From the NCBI RefSeq assembly GCF_003334815.1, contig NZ_QOWO01000069.1: a DNA stretch of 5,921 bases; one strand, 5' to 3'. The position numbers and the translations under genes are program-made. Of this stretch, positions 1-5,921 are shown in pieces. The first letter of the stretch is position 1; the number at the start of each line of letters is the position of its first letter. This stretch comes from Escherichia coli (GTDB taxonomy: Bacteria; Pseudomonadota; Gammaproteobacteria; Enterobacterales; Enterobacteriaceae). The notes beneath the pieces are model-generated. The model had not been told where the DNA came from. It searched no databases and was given only the letters and a program-made list of their open reading frames with translations.

Positions 1-315
1 GACCCGCCGCAACGACGAAGAGCGCGTGCGCGAAACGGCGTTGCCCCTCACATCCCGGCGGCCTTTTGCCGGGATGCAGGGAGCGCAGGCCACGGCGCGA
101 CAGAGGCGGCGCGACCGGAACGGTCGCTGCAAGCCAGGGGTTTCGCGTCAGGGATGGAAGCCCGTCAGGGCGGAGACAGCTTCGCTGGCTCCGTTCACGA
201 CAGCCCGCCCCGTCAGGGGGACGCCCGGAAAAGGCATAAGCAGGAGAACAACAAAACAGACAGTAATCAGGACAGCAGTAATCAGAGTCAGAACAGGAGG
301 AAAAAGAGAATAATC
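1..315. repeat. Copy A of a ~290-bp direct repeat; candidate Frpo/ssi-type single-stranded-DNA promoter element (begins at the window edge, so may be truncated)
   Basis: Positions 51..270 are identical base for base to 5682..5901 (220 bp); 1..50 matches 5631..5681 with a few substitutions and one indel. Internal dyad symmetry: 51-59/68-76 (9-bp stem), 111-117/121-127 (7-bp stem), 29-36/140-147, and imperfect long-range pairing 37-51/212-225. Purine-rich 3' tail. Functional call is inference from position in an IncF leading region. Confidence 0.6.
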
Positions 316-900: not shown

Positions 901-940
901 GGGCACATCATAGCCCATATACCTGCACACTGACCACACT
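901..940 (-). promoter_or_regulatory. Candidate hok/mok promoter; -10 TATGAT at 907-912 on the minus strand, transcript 5' end near 900
   Basis: Minus-strand sequence from 900 downward (GGCGCTTGAGGCTTTCTGCCTCATGACGTGAAGGTGG...) matches the 5' end of the R1 hok mRNA as I recall it. TATGAT lies 6 nt upstream of that 5' end. The -35 is not clear. Confidence 0.45.
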
Positions 941-1146
941 CACTTTCCCTGAAAATAATCAGGTCGTTCAGCCAGTTCCCGGGCAATCAGTTCATCCGCA
1001 AACAGTGGTGCATGCCTGTTGATACGTTTCTCCAGATTCCGCCGTCGTACCGCAGCCTTACGTTCTTCGCTCCAGCGGCGCACCGGGCGGTCAGAAATAA
1101 AATCCAGACAGACCGCATACCCTGCTCCGGCAACCCAGCGTGACAT
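940..1146 (-). CDS. Hypothetical small protein (68 aa from ATG at 1146; the track ORF extends to a GTG at 1287 and would overlap the psiA 3' end)
   Basis: Open frame between psiA and the hok promoter. C-terminal part is charged and helix-like (RRWSEERKAAVRRRNLEKRINRH...). No convincing Shine-Dalgarno before ATG 1146. Start and reality both uncertain. Confidence 0.3.
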   Translation of the reverse strand: MSRWVAGAGYAVCLDFISDRPVRRWSEERKAAVRRRNLEKRINRHAPLFADELIARELAERPDYFQGK

Positions 1147-1250
1147 AACGGATGCCGGAGCAGGCTGCCCCGCCTCCACCACTTCTGAAACCAGTTCATG
1201 CTCGCCAGGACAGGGATAAGGCAGTTTCCAGCGCAGTGAGTAACGCCACT

Positions 1251-1970
1251 TCACGCCGCCTCCCGGAGTTTGTTCGGCACCATCCACCGCTCCATCTCAC
1301 GGACGGCATGACCGGCCTCCCTTGCCGCCATACCAGCCTCTGCGGTGACCTGCCAGAATGGCATATCCTGCCACTGCCAGCGTTCCATCCCGGCCAGTGA
1401 CGGAAAACGCTCGCCCCACTGCCAGAACAGGGTTTCCAGGTCATGCTCTGCCACCCGGTCACTCCAGCGTGCATGCCAGCTTCCGACTGTTTCCGGTGAA
1501 TGGAACGCCAGTTCGATTTCTGCCTGAGCAACCAGCGCCTGGTACGCACGGGTTTTCTGCTCTGCCTCCCTCGCCTGCTGACGGCTGTACTTCTGCATGA
1601 CCAGTGCGGATTTATGGCGACTGCGTTCCCTGACACGGAACCGCACTGACGGGAACAACTGCTCTGCTGCATCGCAGGGAAGAGGAAGAAGGCAGACCTC
1701 GCCCTGAGTTTCAATCAGCACATCGACGGCATACAGCCACTGAGAACGGTTGCCGCGCAGTTCTTCTGCGGTCAGGGACGGCATGAAAAATCGCAGGTCA
1801 GACAGCGAAATCCTGCGGCTTCCGTTCAGACAGCGGAAAAACGCCCCCGCATACGGATATTCCGCCAGCGTGTTCCCCTGATGGCGGCGTTTTTCCGTCT
1901 CCGCCACCGCCTGCCATGCGGCCTGTTGCTCTGTGCTGAGGGGAACCAGTGCCTGTGAACGTGCGCTCAT
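1251..1970 (-). CDS. psiA: Plasmid SOS inhibition protein PsiA, 239 aa
   Basis: 239-aa ORF immediately downstream of and translationally coupled to psiB (ATGA overlap at 1967-1970); length and sequence match PsiA of F-like plasmids as recalled. RBS GGAAGGAGG about 6 nt upstream. Confidence 0.9.
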
Positions 1971-2455: not shown

Positions 2456-4423
2456 TCAGGCGGCATCGGCCTGGTTGTCACGGTATTCCGTGGTTTCCGT
2501 CTCTGCCTGTGGACGTGGTGTACACATCCAGCCAGGCACCCAGCGGTTGTCTTTCATGTGGAGCTCTGCATGTTCAGCCGCATCGCCTTTCTTCATTTTC
2601 TCCGCGTCCCGCGCAGCACCGGACAGTCCTGCATCATTCAGGGCATCGATAATCTGCGGCTTTTTCAGATGTCCGAAGAAGTTTGCTTTTGTCGGCTGCC
2701 ACCAGTCACGCATGTGGAACCCGATAGCGGTTTCCAGCGAGTCAAGCGGACTGCGTGACGTGTGACCATGCTCGCGAGTCTGGACACCATCCACGGAACA
2801 GGCTGTACAGAAAACCATCAGACTCATCAGAGTCTGTCCGTTAAGCGTGAAGAATGTGGTGAAATCTTTCTGCCAGCCCTCCGGCAACAGAGCCTCCAGA
2901 CGGGCTTTTTCCTGCATCAGACTCAGCCACGCCTGACCTCTCTTTCCACCGGGAGCATCACTTGTCAGCCTTCTGTGATTCTCTTCAATCTGTATCCTGA
3001 ACGGGTGGAGAGTGGTATTGCAGTAATCAAAAACACAACAGCACAATCGCCAGACCATCAGTGCCACTGTTTTTTCAGGTTGATGTATCAGCGCCGCCTG
3101 GACTGCCAGCGTGCGCTCTGAGGACATTTTCGTCAGCAACGGCAGGCTGATTTCCTCCACTGACGCTTTCTCCTGCACCTGTTCCGTGCGGTCAGCGTCG
3201 TCAGCCACGTCATCCTCACTGCGCAACTGCACACCACGCTGGACACACACGTTGCCATAACGCCAGGACACCACCACTCCACCTCCGGCACGCATCTCCG
3301 GCGTCCACGCTCTGACCTTCGCCATGCAGCGCATCAGCTTCATTTCTGCTTCCAGCAGGTCAGATTCCTCACACTGGTTTTCCAGCGCGTCGTAACGCGT
3401 CATCAGTTCGTTCAGGCGTTCTTCTTCCGCCTCCGTCAGCACCGCTTCCGGCTCCGGCAGACAGCGGTATGTTCCGGCATCCTCACGGCACTCACCGACA
3501 GGCTCCATGCGCCCGGCGCACCATTCCCAGCCTTCGGCTTCCCGAAGGTGTTCAGCAACAGCCTGGAGTTTTTCCAGCAGGGCGGCATTGAGCGCCACGC
3601 AGTCCACATAGCCACCTTCGTCGTCGCTGAACAAATCGGTGCGCAGTTCATCTGGCGAGAAGGCATCAGCCCCCACAAAGCGGAATTTACTGTTCCCCGC
3701 CACCGCCACTTCACTTTCGGTCACCAGACGACGAATGGTCTGTACTTCCGGTTTACCGCCCCATCCCGACTGACAGGCGGCTTCAAACACCTGCACCTGA
3801 CGCGCGGTGTCATTCTCCAGCGCCAGCGCCTGACAGTGTTCGGTGGTGATGCGGTCTTCTGCCAGCGCATCGAGGATGACAGGCGCAAGGTCAGCCAGTT
3901 TCAGCATTCGCTGGACATGGCGGGGTGAATAACCCAGCAAGTCACCGATTTGTGCAGGTGTTTTGCCTTCCTGCGCCATTGCGCGGAATCCGGCAATCTG
4001 TTCGGCAGGATGCATATCCCGACGATGACCGTTTTCAGTCATTGATGCGGCAGTCGCCAGCTCCTGCGGAATGACCTTCACACGGACAGGCCAGTCAGCC
4101 GGAAGGATGCCACGCTCTGCCAGCATGTTGAGTGCAGCCAGTCGGCGACCACCTGCGGCGACACCGTAACGCTCACCCGACAGGGCATGAACAACCAGAT
4201 TCTGCAACAGGCCGACGCCCTTAATGGACTCCGCCAGTTCGCTGACGGACTCTGCGGAATACGGCACAGTGCGCACATTCAGCGGTGATTTAATCAGTGA
4301 GGCCAGCGACACGCTCACTTCTTCCGTCTGCGCCAGCAGGGCAGACAGTGCAGTCTCCTGCACTTTTGACGGTTTACGGCTGGATTTACGCCCCGCTTTT
4401 ACCTTAAACTCTGTAACTGACAT
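2456..4423 (-). CDS. ParB/Srx-domain protein of the plasmid leading region (ParB-like nuclease/DNA-binding domain at N-terminus, long uncharacterised C-terminal region), 655 aa
   Basis: 655-aa ORF with ATG at 4423 and RBS AAGGGA. N-terminus carries ParB box motifs (SPLNVR around residues 46-51; GGRRLAAL at residues 91-98, resembling the GERRxRA arginine patch) and a helix-turn-helix-like segment (TPAQIGDLLGYSPRHVQRML). The C-terminal ~400 aa have no motif I recognise. A large ParB-like gene next to ssb is a hallmark of IncF/IncI leading regions. Confidence 0.85.
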   Translation of the reverse strand: MSVTEFKVKAGRKSSRKPSKVQETALSALLAQTEEVSVSLASLIKSPLNVRTVPYSAESVSELAESIKGVGLLQNLVVHALSGERYGVAAGGRRLAALNMLAERGILPADWPVRVKVIPQELATAASMTENGHRRDMHPAEQIAGFRAMAQEGKTPAQIGDLLGYSPRHVQRMLKLADLAPVILDALAEDRITTEHCQALALENDTARQVQVFEAACQSGWGGKPEVQTIRRLVTESEVAVAGNSKFRFVGADAFSPDELRTDLFSDDEGGYVDCVALNAALLEKLQAVAEHLREAEGWEWCAGRMEPVGECREDAGTYRCLPEPEAVLTEAEEERLNELMTRYDALENQCEESDLLEAEMKLMRCMAKVRAWTPEMRAGGGVVVSWRYGNVCVQRGVQLRSEDDVADDADRTEQVQEKASVEEISLPLLTKMSSERTLAVQAALIHQPEKTVALMVWRLCCCVFDYCNTTLHPFRIQIEENHRRLTSDAPGGKRGQAWLSLMQEKARLEALLPEGWQKDFTTFFTLNGQTLMSLMVFCTACSVDGVQTREHGHTSRSPLDSLETAIGFHMRDWWQPTKANFFGHLKKPQIIDALNDAGLSGAARDAEKMKKGDAAEHAELHMKDNRWVPGWMCTPRPQAETETTEYRDNQADAA

Positions 4424-4483: not shown

Positions 4484-4756
<273 letters not shown>

Positions 4757-4774: not shown

Positions 4775-5302
4775 TCAGAACGGAATGTCGTCATCGAAGT
4801 TATACGCGGGTTCAGACGGCTGCTGAGGCTCGGGCTGCGCGGCCTTACGTCCACGGCCTTTCGTTTTCGCGCCTCCTTTTTTCGGTTCCGGCTGTGGTTC
4901 CTGCTGAGGCTGACCGCTGAACTGTTGTGCCTCTTCCGGCTGAGTCTGAGCACCTGCGGCACGTCCCAGCATCTGCATGGTGCCCGTGGTCTTAACAAGA
5001 ATTTCAGTGACGTAACGGGTGATACCGTTATCTTCCCAGCTACGGGTACGGAGTTGCCCCTCGATGTAGACCTGCTCGCCCTTGTGCAGATATTCACCGG
5101 CCACTTCCGCGAGCTTGCCGAACAGCACCACGCGATGCCATTCTGTCTGCTCCCGTATCTCCCCCGTCTGTTTGTCACGCCAGCTTTCTGACGTGGCCAC
5201 CTGCAGGTTTGCCACTGCGCCCCCGTTTGGGATGTAACGGACTTCCGGATCTTTTCCCAGACGACCGACAAGAATGACCTTGTTAATGCCACGAACTGCC
5301 AT
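4775..5302 (-). CDS. ssb: Plasmid-encoded single-stranded DNA-binding protein, 175 aa
   Basis: Translation from ATG at 5302 ([48 protein letters not shown]...[19 protein letters not shown]...) has the SSB OB-fold core, a Gln/Pro-rich linker and the acidic C-terminal tail DDDIPF. Strong RBS AAGGAG 7 nt upstream. The track ORF begins 13 codons upstream (5341), but the RBS-supported ATG is at 5302. Confidence 0.92.
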
Positions 5303-5485
5303 GATGTATCTCCTTCTGTTGATGTTTTCAGCCCCCATCATCTTTTGAGTTTCGGGAGCCGCGGTTTTGACGTTTTGCGGGGACCTGCCTTTTGTTCCCT
5401 ACGGTATTCACCATCACCTTTTTGAGAACCTTCGCCGCAAGGGGCATCACTGCCACGGCCTGACGCACCTGTCCTGGGCAGAACG

Positions 5486-5521
5486 CAAAATTTTTTACCG
5501 GGTTCTGGGTAAAAAATTTTG
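5486..5521. repeat. Perfect 14-bp AT-rich inverted repeat (CAAAATTTTTTACC / GGTAAAAAATTTTG) with 8-nt spacer; candidate operator or structured regulatory site upstream of ssb
   Basis: Arms 5486-5499 and 5508-5521 are exact reverse complements; an extra C-G pair at 5484/5523. No flanking T-run on either strand, so unlikely to be an intrinsic terminator. Confidence 0.6.
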
Positions 5522-5630
5522 TGGGCTGTTCATTTACCCTGGACAGTCAGTGCGGCAGGTTGTGGCTGTATCAGCCCCCGGCGACAGGGGCTTAAACAGG
5601 TGAATGGCACCGGACACAACAACGGGCAGG

Positions 5631-5921
5631 GACCCGCCGCAACGACGTGAAGCGCGGTTTGCGAAACGGCGTTGCGCCTTACATCCCGGCGGCCTTTTGC
5701 CGGGATGCAGGGAGCGCAGGCCACGGCGCGACAGAGGCGGCGCGACCGGAACGGTCGCTGCAAGCCAGGGGTTTCGCGTCAGGGATGGAAGCCCGTCAGG
5801 GCGGAGACAGCTTCGCTGGCTCCGTTCACGACAGCCCGCCCCGTCAGGGGGACGCCCGGAAAAGGCATAAGCAGGAGAACAACAAAACAGACAGTAATCA
5901 GAGCAGCAGAAAAAAGAAGAA
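5631..5921. repeat. Copy B of the ~290-bp direct repeat; candidate Frpo/ssi-type single-stranded-DNA promoter upstream of the ssb operon (runs to the window end, so may be truncated)
   Basis: 5682..5901 is identical to 51..270; flanks diverge. Begins about 330 nt upstream (minus-strand sense) of the ssb start codon. Same internal hairpins as copy A. Confidence 0.6.

Follow-up and report, generated by a model that had tools for sequence, protein, structure and literature searches.

Here, we focus on herB, a gene that occupies positions 2456-4423, on the minus strand, of a 5,921-nucleotide stretch of Escherichia coli DNA (contig NZ_QOWO01000069.1; the whole stretch is referred to as the window). 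The open reading frame (ORF) starts with ATG, has an AAGGG Shine-Dalgarno-like motif ~7 nt 5' of that codon, and encodes 655 residues and a stop codon, exactly as a first-pass annotation made from the letters alone had delimited it. Judged from sequence comparison, the gene is the orthologue of herB of F-like conjugative plasmids, a leading-region gene called yfjB in F and 'parB2' in pED208. The coding sequence (2456..4423) is assigned on the basis of the 655-residue ORF, a full-length match to F YfjB (L002:7539-9497; 85% identity, 655 versus 652 residues, residue numbering the same until about residue 470), and a full-length match to phrog_7783 (PHROG 7783, function unknown; E 1.9e-250). By megablast, the herB region is present in at least 5000 plasmid records with a best identity of 96-97%, and these plasmids are mostly conjugative and come from Escherichia, Klebsiella, and Salmonella. 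The database label of the protein in the plasmid records is ParB/RepB/Spo0J family (partition) protein.

The function of this gene was an open question until mid-2026, and it is now answered for the F orthologue by a preprint of Virolle et al. (7 July 2026; bioRxiv 10.64898/2026.07.07.736705; PMC13370423), in which YfjB is characterised and renamed HerB. What the present analysis adds beyond the preprint, namely a mosaic patch in the fourth domain (D4) of the protein and H-NS fusions in distant relatives, are modest details. Other reports that mention ParB concern different matters: the subject of PMC9800825 ("Plasmid parB ... UPEC") is the pUTI89 parAB partition gene, which is a different gene, and in bioRxiv 2026.01.09.698686 and PMC12672017 ParB serves solely as a fluorescent parS reporter.

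The window HerB is organized in four domains, all encoded on the minus strand. D1 is a ParB N-terminal domain that binds cytidine triphosphate (CTP) (residues 1-136; 4016..4423); it is recognised by Pfam ParB_N at residues 43-131 (E 5e-7), and its limits are taken from PMC13370423. D2 is a ParB-type helix-turn-helix (HTH) DNA-binding domain (residues 137-235; 3719..4015), recognised by Pfam HTH_ParB at residues 136-222 (E 5e-8), by the residues R168, R172, and K175, and by Foldseek. A sequence search of the PDB returns only the N-terminal and HTH parts of ParB, Spo0J, Noc, and KorB, within residues 15-220, and the best match is 1vz0 (E 1.4e-16, residues 15-203). The NCBIfam model TIGR00180 also matches the N-terminal ParB-type part, with a domain score of 63.1 bits against a cut-off of 58.45. 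The ParB/Srx fold and the HTH that had been claimed for the N-terminal ~180 residues are thus supported by Pfam and the PDB, but the claimed extent is too short, as the region really reaches to about residue 222-235. NCBIfam PRTRC_parB and PRK13832 match the N-terminal part only and far under their cut-offs, and HerB is not a member of either family.

The residues expected of a CTP-dependent ParB-type protein are in place. Read from the sequence, Box II of D1 is G91-G-R-R94-L-A-A97 and Box III is M128-T-E130-N131. Six positions (G91, R94, N131, Q209, W628, and P630) do not vary among 81 diverse full-length representatives of the family, and the conservation of E130 is at least 90%. All five residues that were mutated in F HerB (R94, E130, R168, R172, and K175) are present in the window protein, and residues 121-210 are 100% identical to F. 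At the other end of the protein, the W628-x-P630 motif lies in the stretch RWVP (residues 627-630; window 2534-2545), is invariant in 81 of 81 representatives, and is as conserved as the CTP-pocket residues. It stands at the end of D4, directly before a flexible tail; the preprint text consulted (PMC13370423) does not discuss it.

C-terminal of residue 222, Pfam finds no domain in the window HerB. Structure prediction by AlphaFold2 (AF2), which was made on monomers only, is confident for this region (mean predicted local distance difference test score 89.6 for residues 237-655 and 89.9 for the full-length protein). D3 (residues 238-417; 3173..3712) is predicted to be a mixed alpha/beta 'leg' domain with a long helical hairpin, and it has no relative in Pfam or the PDB by sequence or fold. 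D4 (residues 418-655; 2459..3172) is a predicted helical dimerisation and nucleoid-association domain with a C-terminal tail, based on the AF2 model and the description in PMC13370423. The predicted helices and strands and the four-domain layout agree with the published description of F HerB. A low-confidence loop of the monomer model (residues 469-476) lies where the F dimer solved by cryo-electron microscopy (cryo-EM) has an intermolecular beta-strand (residues 475-479), and the predicted secondary structure is compatible with a domain-swapped D4 dimer.

The C-terminal ~420 residues find no match in Pfam, NCBIfam, PADLOC, or the PDB by sequence or profile. Foldseek with the full-length AF2 model matches only the N-terminal halves of ParB, Noc, and KorB (~200 columns), and so does the family profile. 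The profile and structure searches of the C-terminus that had been suggested have therefore been run, and they find no known partition or housekeeping domain. Of the ~470 residues formerly listed as unassigned, ~420 indeed remain without a domain in these searches, but the region is no longer uncharacterised, since D4 has been solved by cryo-EM (PMC13370423). It is also widespread: a query with the last 425 residues alone finds 2042 representatives of 50%-identity clusters (E<=1e-3), and in nearly all full-length matches (600-700 residues) the alignment begins at about residue 200-250. This starting point indicates that ParB plus D3-D4 is an old and widespread architectural unit. With these cluster representatives and >5000 plasmid records, herB is not a chance ORF.

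What is known of F HerB comes from the preprint (PMC13370423). F HerB is a homodimeric CTP-binding clamp. A crystal of D1 (residues 1-136) and D2 (residues 137-235) holds CTP-gamma-S and Mg2+ in the canonical pocket, while D3 (residues 238-417) and D4 (residues 418-652) are new domains. In the cryo-EM structure, two copies of D4 make up a domain-swapped helical dimer, which forms a V-shaped dimerisation core; D4 also has affinity for the nucleoid, and the formation of nucleoid foci requires R94, E130, R168/R172/K175, and D4. Chromatin immunoprecipitation sequencing (ChIP-seq) finds 156 chromosomal regions bound, none on F and with no parS-like motif, and RNA sequencing (RNA-seq) finds 505 genes down and 361 up. 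Deletion of herB in F changes neither transfer frequency nor plasmid positioning; it raises the acquisition cost by ~10% and leads to loss in multi-day transfer competitions. The window HerB resembles F HerB in being a full-length orthologue with the same four domains and the same CTP and HTH residues, and its gene occupies the same slot between yfjA and psiB, 3' of Frpo2. It differs in that part of its D4 is another allele (see below).

The genes around herB are also those of the F leading region, and all recognisable genes in the window are on the minus strand. Upstream of herB lie ssb (4775-5341 as an ORF, with a likely start at M14, position 5302; NCBIfam ssb, E 9e-109, residues 14-188) and the DUF905 gene yfjA (4484-4744 as an ORF, 86 residues; named from the annotation of matching records). 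Downstream follow psiB (1967-2404; NCBIfam PsiB, E 2e-83) and psiA (1251-1970; NCBIfam PsiA, E 4e-125). The order ssb-DUF905-herB-psiB-psiA is the same in a related IncFIA/IncFII plasmid and in F, and, apart from one 270-nt gap, the window aligns collinearly with the leading region of F along its whole length.

The two ends of the window carry direct repeats of ~280 nt (1-286 and 5631-5917) with a 257-nt core that is 97% identical, and these copies correspond to the single-stranded DNA promoters of F named Frpo1 and Frpo2 by Couturier et al. The Frpo2-type copy (5631..5917, a 97% direct repeat of window 30-286) lies upstream of the ssb-yfjA-herB-psiB-psiA operon and is collinear with the F region 5' of ssb. 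Its hairpin is in the transferred strand, which is the plus strand of the window, and transcription from it runs leftwards. As single-stranded DNA, the plus strand of this copy folds better than shuffled sequences (z = -3.75). In F, zygotic and transient expression of the leading genes from Frpo2 has been shown, and yfjA and yfjB, between ssb and psiB, are expressed from Frpo2 in the early phase when the plasmid is single-stranded, and only transiently; deletion of Frpo2 leaves the conjugation frequency unchanged (PMC9849209). The proposal that the gene sits between ssb and psiB and is expressed early thus agrees with the gene order, and with zygotic expression of the F orthologue from Frpo2 (PMC9849209, PMC13370423).

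Based on the locus and on the F orthologue, we consider it likely that HerB is a zygotically made ParB-like CTP clamp that acts on the host chromosome, retunes host expression, and lowers the cost of plasmid acquisition. The basis in the window is orthology, the domain layout, the CTP and HTH residues, the setting of the gene in its operon and 3' of the promoter, and the lack of ParA and parS. The dimer, CTP-gamma-S binding, foci, ChIP-seq, RNA-seq, and fitness effect belong to the F orthologue, in one preprint, and would apply to the window protein by analogy. Like the authors of the preprint, we infer the loading and sliding of the clamp and the link from binding to transcription.

Once the transferred strand has reached the recipient as single-stranded DNA, transient transcription of ssb-yfjA-herB-psiB-psiA would start from the hairpin promoter Frpo2. 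HerB would then form a homodimer via D4, which would replace the canonical ParB C-terminal dimerisation domain, and the D4 dimer would give rise to a V-shaped clamp. Its two legs (D1-D3) would be flexible, and each would bear an HTH and a CTP pocket of the ParB type. By means of CTP binding and the HTH, HerB would assemble into foci on the host nucleoid and occupy ~150 scattered chromosomal regions, which are 0.3-3 kb long and have no parS-like motif in common, the plasmid being left unbound. This occupancy and knock-on regulatory cascades may alter how hundreds of host genes with functions in metabolism, redox balance, and ribosome hibernation are expressed, and the altered host expression may in turn lower the growth cost of the newly received plasmid.

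Several points weigh against this explanation. The functional evidence is all from one non-peer-reviewed preprint on an allele that is 85% identical, and most of the omics data on F HerB come from ectopic expression. It is in the dimerisation subdomain (51% identity across residues 446-545) that the window allele diverges most, and the structure models made of it are of the monomer. HerB has no known loading site or partner, and the route from binding to transcription is undefined (PMC13370423). Finally, the fitness effect is modest (~10%).

HerB can be compared with several known proteins. The match of KorB of RK2/RP4 (PDB 8qa8, 8qa9) to the window model is confined to the N-terminal and HTH fold (E 4e-7). 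Like F HerB, KorB belongs to the ParB family, binds CTP, carries an HTH, and controls transcription instead of serving segregation only. KorB binds OB operators, which are defined sites on the plasmid that encodes it, and has KorA and IncC as partners. Its C-terminal dimerisation domain is a different one, whereas HerB has D3 and D4 and, in the case of F HerB, chromosomal targets and no known operator sites or KorA-like partner. The chromosomal proteins ParB/Spo0J and Noc have the CTPase N-domain (GxRR, ENxxR) and the HTH in common with HerB, and Noc is similarly a ParB-derived protein repurposed away from segregation; unlike them, HerB comes without parS or Noc-binding (NBS) sites, a ParA partner, a membrane-targeting helix, or the canonical C-terminal domain. 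In function, a parallel is Sfh, the H-NS paralogue of pSf-R27, a plasmid-borne 'stealth' nucleoid-associated protein that lowers the cost of plasmid acquisition and is thought to buffer H-NS titration. As judged from F HerB, HerB is also plasmid-borne, nucleoid-associated, and cost-lowering, but the folds are unrelated, and HerB is a CTP-dependent ParB-like clamp that is expressed transiently after entry.

Another way in which HerB could act early is as a translocated effector, delivered along with the DNA by the type IV secretion system (T4SS) of the donor and active before any transcription in the recipient; this would complement a zygotically made clamp. The evidence for this comes from ParB2 of pED208, which is likened to the window gene by position, as it has the same slot in a conserved ssb-parB2-psiB-psiA cluster. 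Cre-ParB2 is moved into recipients at ~1e-3 recombinants per donor in 20-h matings, in a TraD- and TraC-dependent manner (PMC8406263). T4SS translocation is a feature shown only for pED208, and the Cre assay is very sensitive and uses overexpressed fusions. In F, donors contain no detectable amount of the leading proteins, YfjB among them, and the signal in transconjugants is made de novo (PMC9849209). We give delivery from the donor a small chance.

An anti-defence role had been offered as plausible, in which HerB would shield the incoming plasmid from restriction-modification, clustered regularly interspaced short palindromic repeats (CRISPR) systems, or other defence, either directly or by silencing defence or prophage loci. 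In the latter case it would be an indirect anti-defence factor. The location speaks for such a role to some extent: anti-defence genes cluster in leading regions, ArdA, methylases, and PsiB are encoded near herB in related plasmids (PMC11541004), and herB is expressed early (PMC9849209). Prophages and the phage-like element KpLE2 also contain some of the F HerB ChIP peaks (PMC13370423). The searches for a relative give no support, as Pfam, NCBIfam, and PHROGs return only ParB-type or unknown-function matches and no known anti-defence family (ArdA, KlcA/ArdB, Acr, and similar), and PADLOC gives only marginal matches (PD-Lambda-5_A, E ~0.005) over the shared ParB N-terminal domain, which are not meaningful. 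The gene does not appear in the leading-region survey of Samuel et al., where mentions of 'ParB' are references to hok/sok (PMC11541004). The HerB authors set HerB against anti-defence modules, and the F HerB phenotype is seen in an undefended K-12 recipient (PMC13370423). Conjugation efficiency, which had been recommended as the read-out, is unchanged when the gene is deleted from F (PMC13370423) or pED208, where the parB2 deletion does not change SOS induction either (Al Mamun et al. 2021, PMC8406263); these published deletion tests are confined to non-defended recipients. With no evidence found in its support, we regard anti-defence as improbable.

The database label implies still another function, that of a partition protein which binds a plasmid centromere together with a ParA ATPase. 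This agrees with the match of the N-terminal domain and HTH to ParB/Spo0J and with the TIGR00180 score above the domain cut-off, yet the rest of a partition system is not there. No ParA-like gene is found among the window ORFs, in ~8 kb flanks of the related plasmid, or in the F leading region, and the window contains no repeat array and 0 matches to canonical parS at <=3 mismatches; on the lack of an adjacent ParA or parS array in the window, the first-pass annotation was right. Nor do Pfam and PDB profile searches find the canonical ParB C-terminal dimerisation/DNA-binding domain. In a single pairwise alignment made with phmmer, the ParA-activating Arg of Spo0J (R10) falls opposite Glu23 of the window HerB. 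Furthermore, Sop or Par systems exist separately on F-like plasmids, and established donors do not produce the F orthologue. Deletion of herB leaves F in place, ChIP-seq finds nothing on F, and the acquisition cost increases, all of which upholds the earlier preference for establishment over partition. A partition function, which for F is already largely refuted, is therefore very unlikely, and the consequence for annotation is that herB/yfjB, and not "partition protein", is the proper name of the gene.

The same alignment covers residues 15-30 of the window HerB (window 4334-4381; SRKPSKVQETALSALL), which line up with the ParA-activating peptide of Thermus Spo0J (SRKPSGLGRGLEALL). By this resemblance, the N-terminal peptide looks like a possible remnant of a lost ParA interaction.

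The ParB/Srx fold is common to some nucleases, and a nuclease assay had been suggested. That HerB is a ParB/Srx-fold nuclease or NTPase, like Osa of pSa or a 'ParB-like nuclease', processing incoming or competing DNA, is nevertheless hardly credible, as the CTP-pocket motifs GxRR and ENxxR are intact with an HTH attached, the F D1-D2 crystal holds CTP-gamma-S and Mg2+ in the canonical pocket, and F HerB expression reshapes transcription rather than degrading DNA (PMC13370423).

The window allele differs most from that of F in one place. A BLAST comparison with F leaves a gap at window 2789-3058 (minus strand), that is, residues 456-545, which make up most of the D4 dimerisation subdomain; together with windows of identity, it delimits a putative recombinant patch. 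The DNA identity of herB to F is 46-59% in three 90-nt bins (residues 451-540) and 82-98% elsewhere in the gene, and the protein identity is 51% over residues 446-545 and ~90% in the flanks. In 30-residue windows over residues 451-540, the patch is 67-93% identical to HerB of Enterobacter and Klebsiella IncFII-type plasmids, while D1-D3 of these same proteins are only 17-83% (mostly 27-60%) identical to the window protein. We read the patch as an exchange of the entire homotypic interface by recombination, which would have placed a Klebsiella/Enterobacter-type segment in an F-type herB. In PLSDB, 80 records contain the window-type patch at >=90% identity, at least 5000 contain the F-type patch at >=80%, and ~875 contain the Klebsiella-type class at 60-80%, which makes the window type a minority allele there. 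All of the 120 closest database proteins have the window type.

It is possible, although we think it rather unlikely, that the D4 dimerisation core is an exchangeable specificity cassette, acting via self-recognition or via retargeting to other host partners. If interface swaps set self-recognition, the HerBs of co-resident F-like plasmids would avoid mixed, possibly dead clamps; alternatively, a swap would retarget the clamp to different host partners. In either case, HerB alleles would add a layer of specificity, not recognised before, between plasmids or between plasmid and host. Heterodimers are not mentioned in PMC13370423, where "variable" and "recombin-" refer to ChIP peak widths, plasmid regions, and cloning.

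Distant members of the family provide a further detail on the C-terminal end. In two of the 81 representatives, P0243 and P0257, the C-terminal DNA-binding domain of H-NS (Pfam, E 3e-13) is fused after D4, with the motif TWTGRGKRP at residue 674. This fusion fits a nucleoid-binding role of the C-terminal end of HerB. P0243 (L003:5704-7806) is encoded in a prophage-like context that includes an adjoining S24-peptidase repressor and YdaT, and another distant member, P0181 (L004:1913-3823), adjoins phage tail-assembly-chaperone and holin genes. A curated phage collection gives only 7 weak matches, most of them in cyanophages and others in gut phage contigs (H16 MT836029.1), in agreement with PMC13370423. 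The phage-gene neighbours and the gut phage contigs indicate that the HerB family is not confined to conjugative plasmids.

The remaining features of the window are described here for completeness. Downstream of herB, a 115-residue ORF (940-1287, minus strand; phrog_27524, unknown function) overlaps the 3' end of psiA; in some records it is labelled 'theronine dehydrogenase', probably a mis-annotation that has spread between records. A Hok-family toxin gene, hok, lies at 571-732 on the minus strand. With regard to the promoter repeats, a third copy is present in the related plasmid L001 (17217-17462), and the resemblance to the Frpo1 region extends past the Frpo2 copy up to where ssb begins (91% to F over window 5324-5912). 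An AT-rich inverted repeat (5479-5528), with 21-nt arms that are 86% complementary and an 8-nt loop, is situated between ssb and this copy. GC-rich stem-loops occur in the herB-psiB spacer (2421-2441, ccgccccgccggagacggggcgg) and in the ssb-DUF905 spacer (4736-4756, ccgccccgtcctgtgcggggc); they are similar to each other and possibly form RNA structures between cistrons.

A perfect 17-nt inverted match joins non-coding DNA 3' of hok (432-448) and herB codons 75-81 (4183-4199, NLVVHAL). It is exact in F and L001 and absent from Klebsiella/Enterobacter-type loci at <=3 mismatches. In a chance test, 1 of 200 shuffles reaches 17 when odd lengths are counted (even lengths being self-palindromes), and conservation in three closely related plasmids is weak evidence.

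In summary, HerB shows that genes of the leading region have roles besides blocking host defences. A ParB-derived CTP clamp that is turned on the host chromosome would make plasmid acquisition cheaper, and over repeated transfers this would favour the spread of resistance plasmids.

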